DNA of 64,000 nucleotides from the IMG/VR virus record IMGVR_UViG_3300045988_054045. One strand, written 5' to 3'. How positions within the stretch are numbered: position 1 is the first letter of the stretch; the number at the start of each line of letters is the position of its first letter. This stretch comes from a virus. Of this stretch, positions 7,520 to 64,000 are shown in pieces. The translations under genes and the position numbers were made by a program. Below the pieces are notes generated by a model, which saw nothing but the letters and a program-made list of their open reading frames with translations, was not told the origin of the DNA and ran no database searches.

Positions 7520-8605
7520 ATGGCAGTATGTCTTAATAAAAATTCAGTAGAGTACCAGACATTGTTGAAGATGTCTGGTCTCTCTGAATTTAAATTTAAT
7601 GCTTTTACATCTACATTTGTAGATAAATTTGGTAGGTATCCAGAACTCGATGAGATACCTGGGGCTGACTCTAGACCTTATCTGAATAACTCTTTGTCAG
7701 TCAAAACAATAGATGATACGAGTTTCGTAAAGAATGATAAGATATTTTCTCAAACTGGCACAACAGATGTCAAAGAGGCTAATATTAGGATAAATAACAC
7801 GTATCGAGACTTGGAGGTTAAGCTAACCCCTTCTAGTGAGGTGTCTACGATACAAGTTAGGAAACGCCCAAATAAATGGGACAATGTATATGAGGGGGGA
7901 ATAATTATTGATGACTCCACATCTTCCTCTAGGAATGTTGGAGTTTTTAATAGTATATTAGAGAAATTAGCAAACCTCTATGGTATTAATTTTATTAGCA
8001 TTACTAACGGGGAACTATCCTCAGAACAATGGAAGGGAGTCGTAGATGATGCTAAAACAACTAACGCTTTCGTCTACAATGGTAATATATACATTAATAT
8101 AGATAATTCTAGCATTGATGCTCCATTGCACGAAATGTTACACCTATTCTTGGGTTCAGTTAGGTACAGTGACCCTCAACTATATTTTTCAATGGTGGAG
8201 GCTATGAATGAATTACCTAACAAAGCACTATTGGCTAGAAATTATAAGGACAGAACAGATTCTGACATAAATGAGGAATTGTTGGTGTTGGAGTTTTCAA
8301 AATATGTAACTGGACAAGATAGTATTATTAGTAAGTTGCCAGTTAATGTGCTACATAAAACATTCTACAATATGGGTAGAGTGTTAGACTCTATCTTATT
8401 TGGAGAGCAGAGTATAGCTACTATGGACACAAAGAGTCTATTCAACTCCTCTTTAGTAAAACTGTCTGAATATCTAGGTTCTGCACTAACTAATAATCAA
8501 TATTCAGGAACCTTTAATGTTAAGTCAGCTGAGGTTCACAGAGTATTAGCTAACGTTAAATCAGATTTAATGAAGAATAAAGACCTAAAAGAATTTTGTG
8601 GATAA
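7520..8605 (+). CDS. Zincin-like metallopeptidase-motif protein (HExxH + downstream Glu)
   Basis: HEMLH at nt 8129-8143 in the context IDAPLHEMLHLFLGS. A Glu lies 19 residues after the second His (VEAMNE), which is gluzincin-like spacing. The ATG is 1 nt after the upstream TAA (TAATATG). Confidence 0.55.
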   Translation: MAVCLNKNSVEYQTLLKMSGLSEFKFNAFTSTFVDKFGRYPELDEIPGADSRPYLNNSLSVKTIDDTSFVKNDKIFSQTGTTDVKEANIRINNTYRDLEVKLTPSSEVSTIQVRKRPNKWDNVYEGGIIIDDSTSSSRNVGVFNSILEKLANLYGINFISITNGELSSEQWKGVVDDAKTTNAFVYNGNIYINIDNSSIDAPLHEMLHLFLGSVRYSDPQLYFSMVEAMNELPNKALLARNYKDRTDSDINEELLVLEFSKYVTGQDSIISKLPVNVLHKTFYNMGRVLDSILFGEQSIATMDTKSLFNSSLVKLSEYLGSALTNNQYSGTFNVKSAEVHRVLANVKSDLMKNKDLKEFCG

Positions 8606-11600
8606 TGGGATGCATTTATGATTACAAAGGACATATCTTCCAATCTGAATTAGAATTAGATGATTTCTTACTTGAAAGGGGACATTTAGTATCTAAGTAT
8701 GGGGACATTGTGTTTAGTAAAAGCAATAGGGCTATCCAGACTTATGACTCCGTAATGAACTTAAAGATGGATACTGAGGCTCTTAAAGCAAGTAAGATAA
8801 TCTCTGAGGTTGAAGATGGAAAAAATGATATTGAAAACATTAATGTATCTGGAAATGGATATATTGGTGTGAATAAGTTTCTACAAGGTCTTAGAAACTT
8901 GGAGGGGGACTTATTATTCCCAGAATTTAGACCTGAAAATTATTGGAAGGAGATTAAGCCAAGATGGGCAGGAGGCAAGTTTGACAAAGAGGAGGCTGAT
9001 GCAATATTTGGTGAGGGAGTAGAAACTAGACCTATTGTAAGTGATGAGGAGTTTGCTAGAGCAAGAGAGGTTATTGAAAACAAATGGAAAGCTCAGGGTA
9101 AAATTGGTACTGAACTGCATAAGGCAATACAAAAGTATTTCAGTGAATCAAAGAGTGGTAGGAATATAAGGGAATCAGATGATAACTTCCTAATCAATAC
9201 GTATTTCCCATCTATATTAGACACTAAGCTAGTTCCAAGCAAGGTTATTGCAGAAACCGTCAAATACTGTAGAGACCTAGAGAAATCATTACAGAGAGAA
9301 TTTGGTGAAGACTTGATATACCTTCCAGAAGTTGCAGTTTCTGGAACTACTTCTCAAATAGGAGAATCTGGAAATCCCAATAAGCTATTAGGAGTTATTG
9401 ACTTACTAGTAATTGATGGAAGGGGAAATGCCCACATTATTGACTACAAGACATCACCCAGACCATATGTAGGAACTGCTTCTGAAGCTGGGTATGATTC
9501 TGCTAAAATCTTGACCTTCAAATACCAGCTAGGTGTGTATGAGCGTCTATTAAGAAAATATGGAATAAACACTAGCGGTTCTAGGTTGTTTGTAGCCCCC
9601 ATTCAGCTGTCAGATTTTAAGAGAGAAGGTGACGATTGGGTATACAGTGGTATAAAAGAATATTCAGGTCATGTAGAAGACTTGACTCAAGATATTAAGA
9701 CAAATATTAATATACAAGAGAATATTGACGAATTCCTTCCAGCACCGTTTGTTACTAAAGCTACAACGGAAAACCTACTCCAAACTGTAACCAGTGTAAT
9801 GTCAAAGTGGTTCCCTAAATATGATAGCGTTCCAGGAGAAATCACGGATGATATGGTAGCTGAAACTATAAAAGAAGGGAAGGGTGATAAGCCTAACCCT
9901 GAAACAGGTAAGTATGTATACTCTCCAAAAGGCAATGGGTATCCTCTTAAGGGAGATACATATGAGGAGCTATTTGTAAAGGTAAAAAGAAGGATGAATA
10001 GTATAGCCAACAATAAGATAAACACCACTCAGGTTATTAAGGAGGGTTTAATAAAGGCTATAGAGGATGAGAATCCGTACTATGAGTTTACAAAAGCACA
10101 AATTCCAGACAATCCTAGTGGAGTTAATGGATGGTTTCAAAGAAGAATGTCTAGATATTGTAACCGTAATTGGGAAGTGGTCGACTGTGAACCTGCAGAA
10201 TATCTAGGGTGCATACTACTCAGAAATAAATTTACTAATCAAATAGATGTAGTGAAAATTAGTACATCAATGCTAAAAAGGTCTAGAGAGTTAGTAAAGG
10301 GAAGACATGGTCTTACTGGAGCATTCGAAAGTGATATTATATCGCAGAATAAACCTAACTCTTTGATGATGGAAAGTGTTAATGGTAATATAGAACTAAT
10401 GGAAGCTATGTTAGTGCTTAATAATTTACCTAGTCTGTTTGAGGAGAACGCTATAGTAGGAGAAGTTAGTGTATATAACCCATTTAGAGAGGAGGGTATA
10501 TCTGCAGACAATAAACAGCTGTTATACTGCTTCAATGAGTTGGACAAGCTGTCTCCTATTGGCGTAAATAACATGAAGGGAAGAAACGCTGCTGTTAAGA
10601 TGGCGAATAGGTATGATATATTCTATAACAGGTTTAGGGAGATTATATCTAATGTTAAGGATGATACTAAGATAAACAAGAAGTGGAGAAAGTTTACTGA
10701 ATCTACCAGTGCTCTAGATGCTTGCATTGGAGACCCAACCCAGCTTAGACTAGAGCTTCTTAACCTTAGAAAAGAGTTTTTGGAAGCATTTCCTAACGTT
10801 AATGATACTAGACCTAACGATGATGTAATAGGTATGCCTCACGTCCAAGTATACAGGATGCTAGAAATGGCTATTGGTGAAATAGACGGTCTTGACTTCA
10901 GACAGCAGCTTAGTGACCATGATAAGTGGTTAGAATCAATTTATGTATGGAAAGCTGGTATGGAAGGTACATATCTTGATAATCCTGGTAATATGAAGAG
11001 TCCTATCCTAAATAAGTTGACCTCTTTAGTAACTGTGGCTTATCAGAATATCAGGGATACCGTAAATAGGTCTCAGGGAGAAATCAGGAATTTAGTCAAT
11101 GAATTAAAGAAGGACCAGAACTTCACCTATTTAAAGGAGAGGACAATAGGTAATCAGGCTACTCTATACAGAGATATGATAGTATATACAGATGATGGTG
11201 ATATACTACTAAAGAATCCAGACGACCCAACAACTGGGCTATCTGAGGCACAGAGGAAATTTCTGAAGTATTTTCTTAAAACGGTTAATTCCAACAGATT
11301 TAAGAATATGACTGAGGAAGAATTAGAGGAACTAAGGTTGTCAGGCGATGTTAGGTATTACAGGCTACCTCTAGCTGCTGGTAATGCTACATCTATTGCC
11401 TCAAGTAAGGGACTATTATCTGCAATAAAAGACAAGCTCCAGGATTGGAATCCAAAGAAGGCTGTAGAAAGGGCTAAAACAAAGGTAGAGGGCTTCTTAG
11501 ACCCAACTGACGTTAAAATTGAGAAAGTCCGTAAGGGTGAGCTATGGGAGATGACCAACTCATTTGATATTGGTGAAAAGGGTTCAGAGATACGATTAAG

Positions 11601-41000: not shown

Positions 41001-44000
41001 CTTGAACTAATGGGCTAACAGAATTATTAACTGATGAGTAAGGAATCTGAATAGTTTCCATGCTTTCACAGTTTCTAATAATTACTGTTTTTACATTCGG
41101 TGGGATGTTCAAAGTCTTTAATGCACCACAGTTATTTATTTCTATAGATGTTAACTTCAAACAATCATCAATCAGCAATGATTCTAGGAATGATTGATTC
41201 TCTAGTTTAAGACTAGTAATATCAGTTCCAGACATATTTAGAATCTTTAATACAGCTGATGTAGGGAATGTAATCTTAGTAATAGAAGAATAAGAAACAT
41301 CCAACTCCTGAATCTTACGACAACCACTTAAGTCTAATGTATATGCAGAAGCAGTAGAACCAATCAGTTTAACCTTACTTAGATTTAACTTCTTTATATT
41401 CTTTAGACCAATATCATTAGCCTCATTGTATACACCTCCCTGGAAGAAGTAAGCAGCATCCACATTAGTCAAGCCACTTAAGTCTAGCTCTTGTAACATA
41501 GGTAGGTTAATATTATCCAAACCTGTCCAAGGGTAGCTCTTGAATTTAGTAAAGTCCGTTATATACTTGTTAGCATACATATACACCACTGTTTCACCAG
41601 TAGGCATAGGTAAAATAACTGAAGTAGGAGTTTCACTAATCCAGAAAGCACCAGTAGTTTTATCGTGTGAATAATGATATAATATTTGGCTACTTGCTGT
41701 AATATCTGTACTAAACCTAACCTCAGTAGCTGAACCAGTAGCTTTATTAGAAGCCCACAGACCAGTGATAGGAGATTCAATAGTAGTTGGTAGCAAGTTA
41801 GTATTATCCTTATAACCATACACACCATCTAAGAACATTATTCTCTTTCTAAACCAATCCTTAACGTGCATTACACGATTACCATGTAAGAACTTTAATT
41901 GGCTAAAGTCAGTACTATCCTCATATTTACCTGTGTTTGGGTCATATGTCTTAGATATAGCAAGATATTTAATCTTGTAATCATAATTAAACATAATAGA
42001 ACCTGTTTTTTCAGTATATGACTGATAGTAATCCTTAATGAACTTATCAGGGTCTGGGAATAGGTTAGTTCTTAGATTCACATATAATGATTCCAAGCTA
42101 GTTCTGTTTTCAGTACTACCGCTATCTATACCAGCTAAGTTCTCTAATACTTCCCAAATTCTATTCCACCAAGATGCAAAGAATTGTTTATAACTATCAG
42201 TAGATACATAATTCTTCTCCTGTGTATATTGAGTAATACCAGTATCCTGTGAAGAGATATTATACCATCTATGTAGATGTGCCCAATATTCTACAATATC
42301 TTGTCCAGCATTGTTCAAACCAAATGCCGTATCCATATCATAGAAGCAACAATACCATACATCAGTACCCCAACTACGAATAGTTAAGTTCTTACACATA
42401 GAGTCCACACAACCAAATAGTAATGCAATCATAAAATAAGCACAAGCATTATCCCAGTTTAGATGCTGGTCACAAGCACTAAAGTTATAATAAGCATTCT
42501 TATCCAAATCATAGAACTCTCCAGGAATAGGTTTAGTTGGGGTTTGTCCAGCATCATCCATTGTATATTTCTGGATACGAGTAAGAGCCATATTAGCCAT
42601 CTGAGTATAGAACTTCTGTACTTGATTATAACCGATTGATTCATCCCTAGATGTATACATTACATCACCCATGAACTGCACAATCTTCATATCGTCTTGT
42701 TGGAATGCACCTTGTGCAGAAGAGTTTTGGTTGATTTCAACAGAATATACACCGTTGCTAACTCCAGTATTCCATCTATCAATATTCTCTGTATAATCAG
42801 TTACCAATGTTGGCCCATCTTGATTTATCTTAGTGTAATCAGTAAGTAACTTCAATCCAAGATTAAAGAAGGCATACCTACCTAAGTTAAAGTTATAGAT
42901 ACCACAGAATTTAGGTTGTTTAATAGTTCCATCAGCATCAGGTGCATATCTAATAAACAGAAGAACTGGGAAACCTTCAGAGGTATGTTTAATTTTACCT
43001 CTAATTGAGTTAGCCTTATCAGCATCTCCTCCCCAAACATCATTACCTAACGACATAGGTGGTGTAGCTCCAAATGGGGTAATGGATTGTCCAGCAGAAT
43101 TTGTAGCTCTACCATTAACAATCTGACCAATTACTACATTATTAACGTGAGCGGAGTCTACTACGTCAGCCTTTAATGTAAATTCATTTTCAGGCAACCA
43201 ATCATCAGTAGGTTGGAATAGCATCTTCTTACCTGTTTGGTCTACATCCCCCATGTAGATTTCAAAGTTCTTAGCATTATATGATAGAGAAGATGTACCT
43301 TGTAGACCAATAGTAACACCGTTGTTCTCGGATACACCACTAGGTGTACTAATAACTACTTTACCTTTACTATCTTGATAAGTAATCTTTACGGGGAACT
43401 TAGTACCCATTACTTCTACCTTATCAGATGCAGAGAATATAGCAGTTGAGTAAGGCTCAAACAATGTTGGGCTATTAGATGTTTCCTCTACTAATACAAT
43501 AGGGTAAGGAGTGTTGATTTCCATCTGTTCAACTAGCTTAGCATATAGCAATTCACCAGTTAGGAAACCACCTTTACCACCATCAAGAGTTTTATCCCAA
43601 ATTAGACAGTTACCTGCACTATCAAATAGGTTCTTAGTTCTCAACTCAGCATCAAGAGAAGCATCAATTTGTCCTCTAACTAGTCTGGCTTGCTCTGTTG
43701 CAGATATATAGTTTTGTACAATGGCATATTCACTTTGTGAAGACGTATATAGTTTAATATCGTAGATACTAACATCAGAGAATCTACTTCTAATTCCATT
43801 ATCGTTTCTACATCCGAAATAGAAATCAGTACCAAACATCCAGTCAATGTCTGATTGAAGTACTCTACTTACAGCAGATAGTACACCATTTACATAGATT
43901 TTGAAGTACCAAGCATTTCCTGATAGTAGTGACACATCTAGGTCTACAGTTAATAACTCATTTTGAGGTAATTTAACCGTTAGTGTGTCAGCAGAACCTA

Positions 44001-56861: not shown

Positions 56862-57247
56862 TATTCAATTATTTTAGTACTTAGTAAGTTGTCTAATCTT
56901 AAAGCTGTTTGTGCCAGCGTTTCAGTAGGAATCACATAGTTACCAGTTGCATTTACAAGTATGTCAGTACCATCTAAAACTGGATTGGTTTTAATGGGCT
57001 TCTTATTAACGGTCTTGTTTCCAATCTCGTCAATCTTATCCTGCATATTATCCAACATCTCCTGGATTTTGTCTAATATGTCAACGATTTCCTTATTATC
57101 AAGGAATACAACCCATTTCTCACCATCATATAACAGCATCTTACTGTTATCCTTAATCCAGATATGGTAAATAGTTGGAGGAGTCATATCGCCCCTCCAG
57201 AAATTTACCTGCTTATTATTTACCATTGCATCTGCCATGTTATTCAA
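56861..57247 (-). CDS. Hypothetical small fibre-associated protein
   Basis: 128 aa with an IWIKDNSKMLLYDGEKWV segment followed by a coiled-coil. Overlapping start and stop codons. Confidence 0.45.
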   Translation of the reverse strand: MNNMADAMVNNKQVNFWRGDMTPPTIYHIWIKDNSKMLLYDGEKWVVFLDNKEIVDILDKIQEMLDNMQDKIDEIGNKTVNKKPIKTNPVLDGTDILVNATGNYVIPTETLAQTALRLDNLLSTKIIE

Positions 57248-60125
57248 GTATTATAGAAGCATTAGTAGTAATATTATTAACTATCTCTTCTAATGCTGTA
57301 AGTTTGTCCATTAGTATTTTTCCTTGAGCTGCTGATAGACTTATCTTGGTATCATCTGTAACTAGGTTATTCACTACTATCGGAAGTATCCTCTTTGTAC
57401 AAGTAAACTTAAAAGCCTCCTCTTCACTTTCATTATACTCTAAATTGGTAACTATCTCTAAATCTTCATAACTGTTTAGATGATACATGGTAGTTACACT
57501 TATACTCCTAACTGAATTTATGTCAGTTTGGCTAGTCCCAACTTTATTGTATGCTACAACATAATTATCAATAGAGTACTCCACTACAGAGGTATAGGAT
57601 GAGAATAGTAATTCCATAAATTCGATAGCTTCATCTCTCACATCAAAAGGTACCTCAGAGTTTAAAATATCATTATAAATTACTGATTGGGCTGAATTTA
57701 AATCAGTTCTAATAGAGTCAACCTCTGACTTAATAGTGGTATCGTTGTAGTTCTCTAGACTGTCAACTTTATCCTTATATTGGGTGGTAAAGTCGTTAGT
57801 AGAAAGTCCTTTACCTTCTTCCTTTATTACAAATTTACTAACATCAGGAATCTCAGTCTTTAAAGCATAACCACTTAAATCAACTCCAGGTATAGCAGTA
57901 ATTTGTTGCTGAACCCAAGTTTCAGTAGCTAAACCTTCAATACTTGGGATAACGGGTGTATTAATAAGGTCATTATAATCCTTAGAGAACAGTTCTGATT
58001 TGTCTGCCTTACTATTCAAAGTATTCTTTACACTACTTATCTCAGTGTTAATACCTCCTATGGTAGTATTCTGAGCTAATATAGCATCACTCAATTTCTT
58101 GAATGTATTGTAAGATGGGTCAGCACCTTCTAAGATTATGTTAAACCTTCCATCAGTATATTCCTTAGCACTAAGTAAAGCATCGGCAGCCGCACCTGCA
58201 GATTCAGCACCAAGTTCTTCTAATGTATATGTAGGTTTAGTAGGTTGTTTAGCCCATGAAGGAACAGTAGGGTCTGTTTCTGTAAACTCTGTCAGGTAAC
58301 CTTTATCCTCTAATTCCTGTTCAGTAACTAGGTTCTCTGGCAATGAATTTAGATAACCACTATCATTTTCTAATTGAGAAACTCTAGTAGGTATTTCAGT
58401 CTTATCAGCCTTACCACTAATATCTGGAATATCAGTTTTATTAGCTTTCTTCTCAACTTCTGAGCCTAAGTTTGTTATGAGTTGCCTAACAGCAGAATCA
58501 TTGTAGTTAGTCAGCCCAGCTAATTTAGCCTTTTCCTCTATACTAAAATTCTGCTCTGATAAACCCATACCAGCCTGTTTATCAACCTTATTATTCCAAT
58601 TATCAATGTCCTGCTGATTTATGTTCTTGGCAGCACTGGCTGCAAACTGAGGTTCTAATTCTTGGGTTAAGTAACCTTTAGCCTCTAACTCTTCATCAGT
58701 AACATACTCTTCTGGAACTTCTGATAAGTATTCAGAATCATTCTCCAACTGAGAAACTTTGGTAGGTATCTCACTCCTATCAGCTTTATTAGAAACGTCT
58801 GGAATCCTATCATCTACTTCCTTCTTAGTATAGTAGTTGTTGAGTTGAATATCACCACCCTCAATAGCTGCAAGTTTATCGTCTACTTCCTCTTTAGTAT
58901 ATACAGTATGTTTGTCAGCTTTTGCAGCTAATAGCTCTCGTATAGTTGTTGTATCAATACTCTCTGGATTATATCCACTCTGGTCAAGTATTTCTACAGT
59001 TGTCTCTCCCAATCCAGGTTGGGCACTCTTAAATATATAATATAGGTTGCTAAATATTTCTTGAGTTCCAAGTAATTTAAAACCACCTATAATGCTACTA
59101 ACTCCTAGAACTGTATTAGCTCCGTTAGGAATCATAACATATATATATTCATTAGCTCCCGCATTTACTGTATAAACATTATCAATAGTTCTATCTAACT
59201 TAGTATAGTCTGGAGAAGTTCCAAAGTAATTTGGATATTTAATGTCAAATGTAACAACTCTTGTAGCACTAATATCCTCATACTTATACTTTAGAGTAAT
59301 TACCATAGATGTAGTCCTGTTAGTAAAAGTATACTCTCTTACATCAGGACTTAGTACAACATCATTGATAGACTGTTCTACAACATCCTTATAATATTCC
59401 CAAGTAACGGTTACATCCGTAGGTTCGTCTCCATAACACATATACTCTGGGTCTAGAGATATAGCCTTGACGTTATCATCAATAGATGCAGCTGCAATTT
59501 TAGCATTAACCCATTCAGTAGATGCAATTCTATTAGAATTATCTGTCATCAGGGGTAATGTAGTAGTTGGAGTTCCAGCAAAGTTAGGAGAGAATATGTC
59601 AGCTTTGTTTTTAAATCTAATTTCTATCTCGCAAGCCCATTGAGCGAGTTTAAGATTAATCTCATCAATAACCTTATTAATGTCGAAGGCTATTGAATCA
59701 GTTACAAAGGTATATAAATCTTTTTGATTAGACAAGTTACCTTTGATGTTTCCCCACTTTAGAGCATATTCATCTGCTATACCGAGGTTAATTCTGGCTA
59801 TTGTTCTTTGGTATTCATCAGTTAATTCTGAGAATAAATTCTCCTTCTGAAATCCATCGTCTCCACCAGTACACCCATAATATTTAGAAGTATCACAATC
59901 ATCCTTGATACAGATGTGTTCTACTCCTTCCTCTTCTATTTTTACCCCATCTATCTTCTCTATAGTAATAACACCATAGTCAGCACAGATTCCTTCAACT
60001 TCTTCTTTTTCTATAACTCCATCTATTATCTTGGTGTCTGGCTTTATATTGGAGATAGAATGTGGGTAATCAGGTAAAATGGGAGCCTCTTGTTCTTGTT
60101 CGTCAAGACGTATAAACTCTGCCAT
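57240..60125 (-). CDS. Tail fibre protein (961 aa) with duplicated KAD..EIPT.VSQLENDS.YL modules
   Basis: Two copies of a roughly 45-aa module (nt about 58285-58435 and 58665-58805) plus related KADK heptad-like segments. Confidence 0.6.
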   Translation of the reverse strand: MAEFIRLDEQEQEAPILPDYPHSISNIKPDTKIIDGVIEKEEVEGICADYGVITIEKIDGVKIEEEGVEHICIKDDCDTSKYYGCTGGDDGFQKENLFSELTDEYQRTIARINLGIADEYALKWGNIKGNLSNQKDLYTFVTDSIAFDINKVIDEINLKLAQWACEIEIRFKNKADIFSPNFAGTPTTTLPLMTDNSNRIASTEWVNAKIAAASIDDNVKAISLDPEYMCYGDEPTDVTVTWEYYKDVVEQSINDVVLSPDVREYTFTNRTTSMVITLKYKYEDISATRVVTFDIKYPNYFGTSPDYTKLDRTIDNVYTVNAGANEYIYVMIPNGANTVLGVSSIIGGFKLLGTQEIFSNLYYIFKSAQPGLGETTVEILDQSGYNPESIDTTTIRELLAAKADKHTVYTKEEVDDKLAAIEGGDIQLNNYYTKKEVDDRIPDVSNKADRSEIPTKVSQLENDSEYLSEVPEEYVTDEELEAKGYLTQELEPQFAASAAKNINQQDIDNWNNKVDKQAGMGLSEQNFSIEEKAKLAGLTNYNDSAVRQLITNLGSEVEKKANKTDIPDISGKADKTEIPTRVSQLENDSGYLNSLPENLVTEQELEDKGYLTEFTETDPTVPSWAKQPTKPTYTLEELGAESAGAAADALLSAKEYTDGRFNIILEGADPSYNTFKKLSDAILAQNTTIGGINTEISSVKNTLNSKADKSELFSKDYNDLINTPVIPSIEGLATETWVQQQITAIPGVDLSGYALKTEIPDVSKFVIKEEGKGLSTNDFTTQYKDKVDSLENYNDTTIKSEVDSIRTDLNSAQSVIYNDILNSEVPFDVRDEAIEFMELLFSSYTSVVEYSIDNYVVAYNKVGTSQTDINSVRSISVTTMYHLNSYEDLEIVTNLEYNESEEEAFKFTCTKRILPIVVNNLVTDDTKISLSAAQGKILMDKLTALEEIVNNITTNASIILE

Positions 60126-60128
60126 ATT

Positions 60129-61109
60129 TTAGATTTGTATAATTTGATAGGCATATGTCATAGGGTCTAAGAAGGATATAATAGTTGCTTCATTAACCTT
60201 ATGAATGGTTTTGGTAATTGTCATTGATAAACTAGTATCACCGATAGGAAATACTTTATTATATAATGAGCCTTCCATGTAACATACATTCTCATTAAAC
60301 ATATTATTAACTGAGTTCCACCTTAAAGTTGTATCATGGCAACCTCTAAGGAATGTGTTACCTTTGCAGTCAGCTTCCAATACATTGTCATATGTATCTC
60401 CCAAGAATATGTTGTTAGTACATCCTTGCTTTAGTTCATTGTGCTTAGTATTGTGTAATTCTGAACTATCAGTAATAACCCCTCCAGTTAAATCTGAGAA
60501 TGTATAAAAGTCTCCATATGCCGCCCCAAGATTAAGATTAGTATTATCTAATTCTTCAGCCGTTCTTCTAAACTTTATATTCTTAAAGTCATAGTGTGCT
60601 GAGTTGTAATGATTGTCTCTAAGAAATGTTATTTTGCCCTTAGTAGTAACACCATCTTCGAGAGTTTCCTGAGTCGGGTCGTATTCTATAACCCAATCCT
60701 TCATTTTATCATCATCAATAACAACTCTTGGGTCTAATCTATTATTAGTAATAGCTGTAACAATCAGTTTCCAAATAGGTGAGGGGTTAGTGGAGCTGTT
60801 AATGCCCCACGTAACCTTCTGACCAGAACTATTAGTAACATTAGAAGAATATATAGTTTGAAAGTCTGTAATAACATACCTTGCCCCTGTTACTAAACTC
60901 TTCTTACCTATATTGTCATTGAGTACTGCATAGGTGACTTCTAAGGGTTTGGATTGTCCCCCTTCTCCAGTATAATCAATGATACCTATATTCTTTCTCA
61001 GTTGCTCTTGCTCTAACTCAGTTAATCCACCTAATAGGTCTTTCTTCTTGAAATAATTATTCAAATCATGAATACAGGCATAACGTCTTGTATCCCTTTC
61101 TATTGCCAT
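60129..61109 (-). CDS. Hypothetical tail-associated protein (possible beta-helix repeats)
   Basis: 326 aa with a short repeated N.F/N.L pattern (TNNIFLGDTYDNVLEADCKGNTFLRGCHDTTLRWNSVNNMFNENV). Confidence 0.45.
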   Translation of the reverse strand: MAIERDTRRYACIHDLNNYFKKKDLLGGLTELEQEQLRKNIGIIDYTGEGGQSKPLEVTYAVLNDNIGKKSLVTGARYVITDFQTIYSSNVTNSSGQKVTWGINSSTNPSPIWKLIVTAITNNRLDPRVVIDDDKMKDWVIEYDPTQETLEDGVTTKGKITFLRDNHYNSAHYDFKNIKFRRTAEELDNTNLNLGAAYGDFYTFSDLTGGVITDSSELHNTKHNELKQGCTNNIFLGDTYDNVLEADCKGNTFLRGCHDTTLRWNSVNNMFNENVCYMEGSLYNKVFPIGDTSLSMTITKTIHKVNEATIISFLDPMTYAYQIIQI

Positions 61110-61110
61110 G

Positions 61111-61296
61111 TTAATTATTCATTAAGAATTCATATATTCCATCTATCTTATCAAAGTATTGACAAGTCTGAATGAAGGATATTTGGTGGAGAATCATATC
61201 GTAGTTCTCCACATATCCCTTGTTTAACCTTTTGAGGAATTTGTCAAAGTCTTTGATTACTTTCAACTTTAGGTTAGTTATTGCATCCACAACCAC
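61111..61296 (-). CDS. Hypothetical small protein
   Basis: 61-aa ORF packed between neighbours; coding status uncertain. Confidence 0.35.
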   Translation of the reverse strand: MVVDAITNLKLKVIKDFDKFLKRLNKGYVENYDMILHQISFIQTCQYFDKIDGIYEFLMNN

Positions 61297-62068
61297 CTCC
61301 TCCTATAGTATTCTTATCAACCATAACATCTTTACATATTCCTCCACATTGAGTTATGTCTTCTAAGACTCTCTGAGCTTCATAATATTGACCTAACTCA
61401 ATTAGATATTTGATAACATTAATAGCCATCCATATAATATCTCTATTATAGATTAGCATCTTAACATCATCGGTTCTATTCTTACATCTTCCTGGCAAAT
61501 CTCCTAGAAGATTCTTACATAGTCTGTAGAAGCATTCATTAATATGGCAAACACAGAATGTGTTCTTATCACCTCTAATGATAGTAGTAGTCTTCTCAGT
61601 AACTGTAGCTGGAGGCATAGCATTTACCTCTAATATCTCCTCTACTGTTACTGCAATAGACTCTTCATCAACATACTTCATGAATGTTTCAGACTGTGTA
61701 TCATAGTAATAAACAGAATTATAAGCTGTTAGTGCAGTAGGATTTCTATCCAACACATACTTTAACCATACATCAGTTGGTAGTATAATATGTGTAACTT
61801 CATACAGACCATCAATAGGCATCTCTAATTCAGATTCATCAATGCAGTCTATAACGTGTTCTACAACATCATATTTCTGTGTTACTTCGTCTCCAGAAGA
61901 TTTAATGCTTGTTATAGCATTAAGAGTAATAGTTTGGCTGTAGGCATAATTACGAGTACTTACTGTGATTTCACTAGTCTCATTTAAGTACTCGTCATTA
62001 TCCTTTTCCAATCCAGTAATCGTAATACCACAAGCACCTTTCTTGCATATTTTAAATACTGAATCCAT
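61274..62068 (-). CDS. Hypothetical Cys-rich protein
   Basis: 264 aa, ending in GGGGCGCNN, with several Cys pairs. Confidence 0.5.
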   Translation of the reverse strand: MDSVFKICKKGACGITITGLEKDNDEYLNETSEITVSTRNYAYSQTITLNAITSIKSSGDEVTQKYDVVEHVIDCIDESELEMPIDGLYEVTHIILPTDVWLKYVLDRNPTALTAYNSVYYYDTQSETFMKYVDEESIAVTVEEILEVNAMPPATVTEKTTTIIRGDKNTFCVCHINECFYRLCKNLLGDLPGRCKNRTDDVKMLIYNRDIIWMAINVIKYLIELGQYYEAQRVLEDITQCGGICKDVMVDKNTIGGGGCGCNN

Positions 62069-62070
62069 AA

Positions 62071-62448
62071 TTATACATTAAAGTCAGCTCTTACTTTAGT
62101 CTTTATATTTCCTACTAGTGTAAGGTAGTCTAAATATTTCTGTCTATCTGTCTGGTCATCGGATAGTCCTAGAACAATACTATTAGAGCTGTTGATTAAA
62201 TCAAACTCCTCATCTTGGTCTACATACTGCCTAATAATGGCTTTGATGCATTCTTTGTGGTCTGGTTGACCAAACAGATGAACTTGAATATACGTCCACC
62301 TTGTCTCTTGTGTTACCTCTTCAGTCTCAGGGTCAGTAACCTCTACTACTTTAGACTGAATATCATAATTATAGTAATATGTGCCATTACCTAGCTTCTC
62401 TATTGAGTTAGGTTGTACATTCATTTCTATTCTTTTTGGTTCTAACAT
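62071..62448 (-). CDS. Hypothetical acidic protein overlapping the RT 3' end
   Basis: 125-aa ORF whose start overlaps the last 41 nt of the RT gene. It is acidic and beta-rich, so it does not resemble Avd. Confidence 0.45.
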   Translation of the reverse strand: MLEPKRIEMNVQPNSIEKLGNGTYYYNYDIQSKVVEVTDPETEEVTQETRWTYIQVHLFGQPDHKECIKAIIRQYVDQDEEFDLINSSNSIVLGLSDDQTDRQKYLDYLTLVGNIKTKVRADFNV

Positions 62449-63643
62449 AAGGTCTTATTTTAAAATTTACTGGGAATGAATATCTGGTTAGAGAGTAGAA
62501 TAGTTCCCTGCTCTTACTCTCAAAGTAATAAGATTTGTTATTGTATACAAAGTTAACTCTAAAACACTTACTATAGCTAACCATATCCACAACATGAATA
62601 TACTTGTTATAAAATCTAGAAATATTAGACTTCTTCCCGTCCCAATTAGAGAACCTTAAACCTGTATCTCTTTGAATCTTTCTTAACAGATTCTTTGAAT
62701 TACAGAATTTCAGCCAACCAAAATAGGATTGCATTCTCCTTCTTAGTTCTTGTCTGTCTATTTTACCAGTTTGGTATCTACTAACAAGTCTAAATAACCT
62801 AATTTTAATTGACTTTCTCAGTAATACATGGGTGTGATAGAACCTATAGCCAACGAAGTCTATACCTCTAACATCTACTGGGAATATTTGGTAATTTGAT
62901 TTCAACCTTAAATTTAGAACCTCTTTTAAGTACATCTTTATTGCTATGAGTACTCTTCTCAAGAAGTCCTTATCACTGCTGAGAATTACAATATCATCAG
63001 CATACCTGAAGTAGAATTTACATTTTAATTCTTCCTTAACCCAATGGTCAAAGTAAGCTAAGTATAAGTTTGCAAAGAATTGAGAAAGATAGTTTCCAAT
63101 AGGAACGCCGTCTGCTGAATAAATGATTCCGATTAGCAGGATTAATAAATTTTTATCCTTAATCTTACGTTTGATTATATCACACAATATGTCATGGTCA
63201 ATAGAAGGATAAAACTTCTTTACATCCATCTTTAAACAATAGAGTGTTTCATTTGGATGCTTTACCAAAGCTGCTTTTAAATCGTATGCTACATTATGAA
63301 TACCTCTATCCTTAATACAAGAATAAGTTTGCTTGATGAATATCTTAGTCCAGATAGGCTCCATTACATTCATAATAGCATGATGTGTTATTCTATCTGG
63401 ATAGTATGGTAATCTAAATATCAACCTTTCTTTGGGTTCATATATTTTAAATGTACTATACTCAGAAGTTTCATAAACTAAATCTCTTAGCTGTTCTGAA
63501 AGTCTTCTATTCTCTTCCTCTCTGTTCTTATCATGTTTGAGGATTCCCCATCTTACTGATTTATGCTTTCTAGCTTTATCATCTGCTTTCTCAATATTCT
63601 CTATATCATATACCTGTTCATGTAAATAGCCTATACGCTTCAA
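62408..63643 (-). CDS. DGR-type reverse transcriptase
   Basis: RT motifs read in order: KERLIFRLPYYPDRITHHAI, LKMDVKKFYPSIDH, GVPIGNYLSQFFANLYL (nt 63080-63100 encode IGNYLSQ), FRYADDIVILS (YADD at nt 62993-63004), IDFVGYRF. The start is TTG: a TAA lies two codons upstream and there is no in-frame ATG for about 90 codons. Confidence 0.85.
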   Translation of the reverse strand: MKRIGYLHEQVYDIENIEKADDKARKHKSVRWGILKHDKNREEENRRLSEQLRDLVYETSEYSTFKIYEPKERLIFRLPYYPDRITHHAIMNVMEPIWTKIFIKQTYSCIKDRGIHNVAYDLKAALVKHPNETLYCLKMDVKKFYPSIDHDILCDIIKRKIKDKNLLILLIGIIYSADGVPIGNYLSQFFANLYLAYFDHWVKEELKCKFYFRYADDIVILSSDKDFLRRVLIAIKMYLKEVLNLRLKSNYQIFPVDVRGIDFVGYRFYHTHVLLRKSIKIRLFRLVSRYQTGKIDRQELRRRMQSYFGWLKFCNSKNLLRKIQRDTGLRFSNWDGKKSNISRFYNKYIHVVDMVSYSKCFRVNFVYNNKSYYFESKSRELFYSLTRYSFPVNFKIRPYVRTKKNRNECTT

Positions 63644-63717
63644 GTCTTATATATTTATTGTGGAAGCTTTCGAGAATTAACCTACTAACACCCTGTTATT
63701 AAATACTACGTTGTCTT

Positions 63718-63743
63718 TTGCCAAGAGGCAAGGGTGCTGTTTA
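63718..63743 (-). repeat. Spacer stem-loop plus distal arm of a 14-nt inverted repeat bracketing the TR
   Basis: - strand RNA: UAAACAGCACCCUU (63743-63730) is the exact complement of AAGGGUGCUGUUUA (63938-63925). It is immediately followed by the hairpin UUGCC-UCUU-GGCAA (63731-63718). Confidence 0.6.
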
Positions 63744-63782
63744 GACTGTAAAATAAAACAAATTACCTAAAGAAATATATAA

Positions 63783-63938
63783 TAAGCCTACATTAGTATT
63801 AGCATTGCTGACTCCATTATTAGAATTGAAGTAGCTAAGACTAGCATTACTACCATTATTAGCGTTGCTGCTAACGATGAGTGTTTTGTAATAATTTTCT
63901 TGTCCAGCACCAACAGAATATAGGTAAACAGCACCCTT
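63783..63938 (-). repeat. DGR template repeat (TR) candidate, non-coding; 5' boundary uncertain
   Basis: Lies directly upstream of the RT in the same orientation. Stops occur in all frames upstream, and there is no start codon. In the frame set by the VR match it has at least 10 AAY codons within 29 codons (AGC AGC AAC GCT AAT AAT GGT AGT AAT ... AAT ACT AAT GTA GGC). Confidence 0.65.
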
Positions 63939-63966
63939 AATCTCGTATTGTTATCTTATATAATTA

Positions 63967-64000
63967 TTAAACTACTTTATTTAGTGTCCTGAAGCCCACA
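63967..64000 (-). CDS. 3' end of the presumed DGR target gene (partial; ...VGFRTLNKVV*), containing the last bases of the VR
   Basis: Open frame from the window edge to the TAA at 63969-63967. Nt 63991-64000 (+: GAAGCCCACA) aligns to the TR at 63783-63792 (+: TAAGCCTACA) with 8/10 identity, and both mismatches fall at TR adenines on the coding strand. The GFR motif is typical of C-type-lectin-fold VR ends. Confidence 0.5.
   Translation of the reverse strand, partial: VGFRTLNKVV

Follow-up and report, generated by a model that had tools for sequence, protein, structure and literature searches.

DGRs of this kind have already been described in crAss-like phages. For the Zeta crAss-like phages, with genomes of 155-190 kb, a paper of 2025 reports DGRs with a reverse transcriptase (RT) of the GxxxSQ type and a C-type-lectin tail-fibre target (PMC12386605); most of these cassettes have no Avd, and the DGR-positive genomes of group 1 are 186,754-189,255 bp in length (PMC12386605). 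In crAssE-Sib (Epsilon, OR575929), a large crAss-like gut phage, the order is target with variable repeat (VR), TR and RT, and the model of the target is most similar to TaqVP (PMC11054128). Its RT is of the GxxxSP type and it has an annotated GC-rich IMH. CrAssphage LMMB (MT006214; Carjivirus, with a tail-collar fibre of the gp54 type), which belongs to the family Intestiviridae and has a genome of ~98 kb, carries a fibre gene with a 104-nt VR at its 3' end, an intergenic TR and an RT, in this order. In BPP-1 (Mtd, Avd, TR, bRT), the VR lies at the C-terminus of a receptor-binding protein with a C-type-lectin fold, the VR/TR differences are adenine-specific and the RT is again of the GxxxSQ type.

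The DNA analysed here is a stretch of 64,000 nt from a virus (IMG/VR record IMGVR_UViG_3300045988_054045), to which we refer as the window. We considered its last 34 nt (63967-64000), read on the minus strand, as the 3' end of a phage tail-fibre gene whose last ~35 codons before a short constant tail are the VR of a DGR, and to this reading we assign a probability of about 95%. The anatomy of the element, the adenine specificity, the constancy of the TR as against the changing VRs, the fold of the target and the type of the RT directly support it.

The locus agrees with the published description of the Zeta crAss-like cassettes in its GxxxSQ RT, its C-terminal C-type-lectin fibre target and the lack of Avd; in addition, the related contigs are ~187-189 kb long and the RT is similar to Intestiviridae RTs. 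Its TerL shares 28-30% identity with the TerLs of crAss-like phages, and 59% with the one of MT835470. The assignment to the Zeta crAss-like phages (proposed Echekviridae) is an indirect one. With crAssphage LMMB the locus shares the gene order, an RT with 57-59% identity and a C-terminal target domain with ~30% identity. The LMMB TR ends with the same GTNGGCTT, followed by a T-rich ATATA, and the hairpin of its spacer is the same except for a compensatory change (TTACC/GGTAA vs TTGCC/GGCAA here). Besides genome size and family, LMMB differs in the VR-TR offset (270 nt and not 208), in its 3' boundary block, which is identical in VR and TR, and in the N-terminal part of the fibre. More generally, the RT relatives found in Intestiviridae crAssphages (57-59% identity) adjoin tail-collar fibres of the gp54 type.

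From BPP-1 the locus differs in that it lacks Avd, in that reading the sequence downstream of the VR by eye revealed neither a GC-rich 14-bp IMH nor an obvious hairpin like that of BPP-1, in that the TR directly follows the target gene, and in that the main variable codon is AAT and not AAC. An Epsilon crAss-like cassette was also considered as a candidate and was rejected, the comparison with crAssE-Sib giving an E-value of 0.065 between the targets (not significant), 25% identity between the RTs and a different RT motif.

On the minus strand, positions 64000-63967, with which the window starts when it is read on that strand, are TGTGGGCTTCAGGACACTAAATAAAGTAGTTTAA, and comprise two features:

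63991-64000, minus strand: last 10 nt of the VR (TGTGGGCTTC; codons V672, G673 and F674), aligned at an offset of 208 nt to the TR at 63783-63792, where the counterpart is TGTAGGCTTA

63967-63990, minus strand: 3' end of the tail-fibre target gene (681 aa), with its final seven codons (RTLNKVV) and the TAA stop at 63969-63967, a part that has no homology to the TR

The remaining 95 nt of the VR are past the window edge. The edge copy and the TR copy are equal in 8 of 10 bases, and the two differences, A->G and A->C, are both at TR adenines. The initial annotation had described exactly these differences, had placed the end of the homology at the repeat boundary, which is indeed found right after GGCTT, and had preferred the frame GTG GGC TTC AGG ACA CTA AAT AAA GTA GTT TAA (VGFRTLNKVV*) to an alternative one (CGLQDTK*); the 681-aa ORF stops at 63967, so the former is the real frame. 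It had also called the match short and suggestive rather than a proof, and our estimate of chance from the window alone leads to the same judgement. Precisely, for the 9-mer TGTNGGCTT ~1.6 occurrences are expected over both strands of the window, and 3 were found; the chance of such a match in this one 34-nt stretch is ~3e-4 and, by our estimate, rises to a few percent if any TR offset is allowed, so that the window by itself makes the match no more than suggestive. The third copy, TGTGGGCTT at 41751-41759 on the minus strand, fits the chance expectation and has no A-tolerant TR homology around it.

To obtain the sequence past nt 64000, the RT protein encoded at 62408-63643 was looked up by exact sequence, and 24 contigs carrying it were read, which returned eight places (L001-L008). 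One of them, L004, is a 189,018-bp human-gut contig (ENA ERZ917278) that has 0 mismatches to the last 11,593 nt of the window and runs on past nt 64000; given this identity, we took it as the missing continuation of the window. There, the target gene is a 681-aa ORF at 7632-9677, whose stop maps to window position 63967; 325 nt separate its end from the start of the RT gene downstream. The full-length VR that the initial annotation had proposed to look for beyond nt 64000 is present: it occupies 105 nt at L004 9549-9653, corresponding to codons 640-674 of the ORF, and aligns ungapped to the TR at L004 9757-9861 (window 63887-63783), at an offset of 208 nt. All the VR/TR mismatches (27/27) are at TR adenines and none is at the 68 non-A positions (hypergeometric P = 4e-17). 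The TR is therefore described as follows:

63783-63887, minus strand: TR core of 105 nt with 37 adenines, encoding KTLIVSSNANNGSNASLSYFNSNNGVSNANTNVGL in the VR frame; nothing else in the window or in the loci matches the VR when differences at A are tolerated

The initial annotation had given the range 63793-63938, which is ~50 nt too long at the 5' side (the stretch 63888-63938 has no VR counterpart) and 10 nt short at the 3' side. The cassette consists, in order, of the target gene with the VR, ~100 nt, the TR, a structured spacer of ~140 nt and the RT.

The 7 further contigs from the RT look-up also show adenine-specific mismatches, with at most one non-A mismatch. From IMG/VR, 80 related loci were gathered, 70 of them with enough upstream sequence to be tested, and in 65 of the 70 the VR/TR pair is in the same place, with the adenine specificity maintained. 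Together with the earlier loci, these gave 74 distinct VR/TR pairs for the analyses below. No second VR was found by A-tolerant matching on both strands of the 64-kb window and of eight 21-kb loci, and a megablast of window positions 61000-64000 against GenBank phages gave no match.

We then considered how the two repeats vary in nature. The TR is identical in 12 of the 12 loci in which it could be read alongside a VR, while the VRs read at the DNA level are all different (14/14), essentially only at adenine positions. At the protein level, a homologue search with the C-terminal 444 aa of the target gave 6,926 proteins with E <= 1e-5 among 8,000 candidates scored. The best 120 of these 6,926 are 95-100% identical to the query, and in the 109 of them that are full length, at 95-98% identity, the C-terminal 45-mers are distinct in every case (109/109). 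The mean column entropy in these 109 homologues is 1.07 bits at residues 640-674 and 0.03 bits at residues 1-639. The residues with high entropy (643, 647, 649, 650, 653, 658, 660, 662, 663, 667, 669, 670 and 671) are 13 in number, and their TR counterparts are ten AAY codons together with ATC, TAC and ACT. Clustering at 90% identity puts the RT in a cluster of 2,690 members and leaves the target as a singleton. The repertoire encoded by the TR amounts to ~1e13 protein variants if only these 13 positions, which are the ones varying in practice, are counted, and to 2.4e19 in theory. A constant TR facing ever-different VRs is, as far as sequences can tell, the population signature of a working DGR, with retrohoming as the presumed route, and the element is apparently an active and typical Avd-less DGR of a crAss-like phage.

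The two mismatches at the window edge require a separate discussion. After the last variable adenine, VR and TR share only TGT(G/A)GGCTT(C/A), i.e. ~9 nt; the boundary block is GTGGGCTTC in the VR and GTAGGCTTA in the TR. We counted the bases at this boundary in the 51 distinct VRs that share the TR register of the window. At GTA->GTG (V672, synonymous and four-fold degenerate) the VR has G in 50 of 51 cases and A in 1, and at TTA->TTC 49 of 50 VRs have C and the remaining one has T. Judging from these counts, the edge A->G is near-deterministic and not freely randomised, and the last difference, A->C, behaves like a position that is fixed, at the limit of the repeat or just beyond it, and that is maintained as Phe674. 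A DGR is compatible with both. The A-specific mismatches on which the initial annotation was based thus pointed correctly to the VR, but as evidence that adenines are being randomly mutagenised they are weak; that evidence is provided by the portion of the VR that lies past the window edge.

In BPP-1, the difference between IMH and IMH* marks which copy is the recipient. The best-surviving alternative to adenine mutagenesis at the edge is that its two mismatches are, in the same way, fixed boundary differences between VR and TR that mark the recipient copy, and we regard it as a serious reading with odds a little short of even. It would explain why GTA->GTG, although synonymous, still gives G in nearly all the VRs, and why TTC is fixed in 49 of 50, when the other sites with A before T predict a ratio of ~2:1 of C to T among the outcomes coding for Phe. 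In one related TR (L049), moreover, there is a G instead of an A at the final TTA position, and in crAssphage LMMB the equivalent block, GTCGGCTTCTTT, is the one that is identical in VR and TR. However, a near-fixed A->G is not specific to the boundary: every TR adenine before G behaves alike, including the synonymous GGA site in the middle of the VR (G in 47/51), and the same pattern of A before G is present in distant cassettes. TTC, for its part, could be explained by selection on Phe674. GTA->GTG is therefore explained by a rule of general context, and no IMH is needed for it.

Such a rule was derived from the 74 pairs, in which the base that follows a TR adenine on the 3' side determines what is found in the VR. 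A TR adenine before G becomes G in 92% of the cases (about 92-95% over all the comparisons, synonymous third-codon sites included); before C it gives almost only A or G; before A it gives all four bases; and before T it also gives all four bases, with A kept in 55%. Synonymous sites follow the rule, as with the GGA site above, with GTA (G in 51/52) and with ACA before C, which goes to G in 38/44. In 12 distant cassettes with unrelated TRs, A before G becomes G in 72/77. Selection for glycine accounts for AGY->GGY but not for the synonymous sites in GGA, GTA and ACA. For the bRT of BPP-1 an effect of the 3' neighbour on misincorporation has been measured, with dC as the main misincorporated base and an overall rate of ~30% (PMC12875486); the effect in the present cassettes would be much stronger than the one measured for bRT. 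The context effect may be caused by RT chemistry, by integration bias or by a constraint at the nucleic-acid level. We advance only tentatively, and as rather doubtful, the proposal that in this clade the VR base at a TR adenine is programmed by its 3' neighbour, with the boundary GTG/TTC vs GTA/TTA as a possible minimal direction signal.

The other component of the cassette inside the window is the RT:

62408-63643, minus strand: DGR RT of 411 aa, with the motifs PIGNYLSQ (GxxxSQ) and YADD read from the translation

It matches RVT_1 (4.7e-18) and phrog_1423 (2.6e-115), and its best sequence match among solved structures is 8ub7, a 328-aa RT with the aligned motif IGSLTSQ (E 3.6e-47), which, judging from this motif, is probably the bRT of BPP-1. 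Against the group II intron, retron and Drt families the scores are far below the curated cut-offs. As regards Avd, no match was found in the 125-aa ORF downstream of the RT (Pfam, PHROGs, NCBIfam), in the 139-aa upstream ORF (Pfam, PHROGs) or in the 87-aa upstream ORF (Pfam). As most of the published Zeta crAss-like cassettes are Avd-less too, Avd is a frequent but not an obligatory component of DGRs. The 125-aa ORF, which is acidic, is at 62071-62448 on the minus strand, directly downstream of the RT, whose ORF end it overlaps by 41 nt; its only match is to phrog_11557, a family of unknown function (3.7e-15), while Pfam and NCBIfam gave none.

Two further observations concern other ORFs of these phages. 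An ORF for a GIY-YIG/NUMOD3 homing endonuclease is present outside the window, upstream of the terminase region, in L003 and L005 (369-1013 in both), and is absent at the same place in L001, L002, L004 and L006-L008. In the fibre-like ORF of 961 aa at 57240-60125 on the minus strand, a block at ~57500-58000 has an ungapped identity of only ~60-64% to L001, L002, L006 and L007, with the sequence around it otherwise 98-100% identical to those loci; this pattern suggests that a second fibre protein contains a hotspot of recombination or variation. A-tolerant matching in the window and the loci gave no TR-like repeat for this block.

A second alternative to the reading of an active DGR is that the cassette is a relic, with a VR and a TR that diverged in the past and no longer diversify. 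We judge this very improbable. The failure to find an Avd gene or a canonical IMH or hairpin would be in keeping with it, but the RT has an intact ORF and many contigs encode exactly this RT protein, the TR is invariant in the loci that were read, and the VRs differ in all 14 DNA-level and all 109 protein-level comparisons within genomes that are otherwise 95-100% identical. Mismatches at non-adenine positions, which a relic would have accumulated, are essentially absent.

We give practically no weight to the last alternative, i.e. that the 10-nt similarity at the edge is due to chance and no VR exists: seen from the window alone, it has in its favour that the match is of 8 in 10 bases and that TGTNGGCTT also occurs at 41751 with ~1.6 copies expected by chance, but in L004 the match extends to 105 nt and TR adenines are the only positions at which it is broken (P 4e-17), and the same VR/TR pair is in 65 related loci.

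Around the TR of this apparently active DGR, we considered the following RNA features:

63925-63938, minus strand: 5' arm of a long-range stem around the TR (AAGGGTGCTGTTTA), forming a perfect 14-nt inverted repeat with 63730-63743

63730-63743, minus strand: 3' arm of the TR-enclosing stem (TAAACAGCACCCTT), partner of 63925-63938

63642-63735, minus strand: highly conserved TR-RT spacer with a hairpin, identified by conservation in the alignment of related cassettes and resembling Rfam RT-17

Across 20 related cassettes, pairing in the 12-bp core of the stem (63927-63938 with 63732-63743) amounts to 99.6%, and 4 of the pairs show compensatory changes; the covariation score of the stem was reached by 0 of 500 shuffles, and in slid controls the pairing drops to 32-58%. 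The minimum free energy fold of the whole 323-nt intergenic RNA, instead, is like that of shuffles (z = -1.23). The stem clamping the TR is hence the only RNA fold that is supported, by covariation and not by folding energy. In the spacer, the hairpin TTGCC-TCTT-GGCAA is at 63718-63731 and its stem is invariant in the 20 cassettes (TTGCC-NCTT-GGCAA). The Rfam search on the cassette gave only sub-threshold matches, to RT-17 and RT-18. For RT-17 (RF03020) the score is 28.9 bits in the window (E 0.005) and 34.7 bits in a relative (L081, 2910-3001), both under the gathering threshold of 40.4 bits; the hairpin and the GUGUUAGUAGGU...CUCGAA blocks align with this family, and in view of the aligned blocks and of the sub-threshold score we speak of a resemblance to RT-17 and not of membership. 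By analogy with the TR-spacer RNA of BPP-1, the RNA made of TR and spacer probably acts as the template-and-priming scaffold of the RT.

The target protein is identical to GenBank DAW05292.1, labelled 'Head fiber protein', and matches phrog_5302 'tail protein' (7.6e-88). No Pfam family was found for it at E up to 1, families of the FGE-sulfatase and DUF1566 type included, and searches of the PDB by sequence, with the single protein and with a profile of 43 sequences, gave no match; its likeness to DGR variable proteins is thus at the level of the fold only. An AlphaFold2 model was built from 43 diverse homologues, with pLDDT > 90 at residues 250-680 and a poorly defined N-terminal shaft. With Foldseek against the PDB, the first match is TaqVP (5vf4; E 4e-4, probability 1.0), followed by Mtd (1yu0-1yu4), PvdO, TvpA and EgtB/OvoA. 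The TM-scores are modest (0.41-0.47, normalised to the target), in part because the full 681-aa model was used. According to this confident model, the VR-bearing domain has a C-type-lectin/FGE fold, as the initial annotation had predicted from a GFR motif a few residues before the stop: the best matches among solved structures are DGR variable proteins, and V-G-F-R contains no high-entropy column among the 109 homologues. In the N-terminal shaft, outside the window, there is also an in-frame tandem repeat of 84 nt (8046-8198 in L001 and L003; 7965-8216 in L008), with 2 copies in most strains and 3 in L008, where the protein has 708 aa instead of 681.

In the mechanism that we propose, an RNA containing TR and spacer would be reverse-transcribed by the RT from the 3' end of the TR, with misincorporation opposite template adenines, and the resulting cDNA would replace the VR, leaving the TR unchanged. 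In this way ~13 codons (the ten AAY codons plus ATC, TAC and ACT) would be rewritten on the ligand-binding face of a tip with a C-type-lectin fold, and the likely effect would be that receptor binding is retuned. Among these steps, we infer the priming of the cDNA, the homing and the role in receptor binding.

In the light of these results, the window edge cuts through the target gene of a DGR, hence the TR and the RT that it contains are parts of an element that is complete and evidently active. The GenBank labels of its two proteins, 'hypothetical protein' for the RT (DAW05285.1) and the above 'Head fiber protein' for the target, leave this element under-annotated. The context rule at TR adenines and the covarying clamp of the TR are the only points that are perhaps worth a follow-up. 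If it is the RT, and not selection, that the context rule reflects, glycine codons that are structurally essential can be concealed in the TR as AGY, and true randomisation would be confined to AAY; the fixed boundary difference of GTG/TTC vs GTA/TTA could then serve as a minimal direction signal in a system that has neither Avd nor a GC-rich IMH. Context-dependent outcomes, if due to RT chemistry, could inform the design of synthetic DGR templates. As for the biology of the phage, the finding adds one more very abundant crAss-like phage of the human gut that continually rewrites the tip of its tail fibre, which is of relevance for host range and for the arms races between phages and their hosts.
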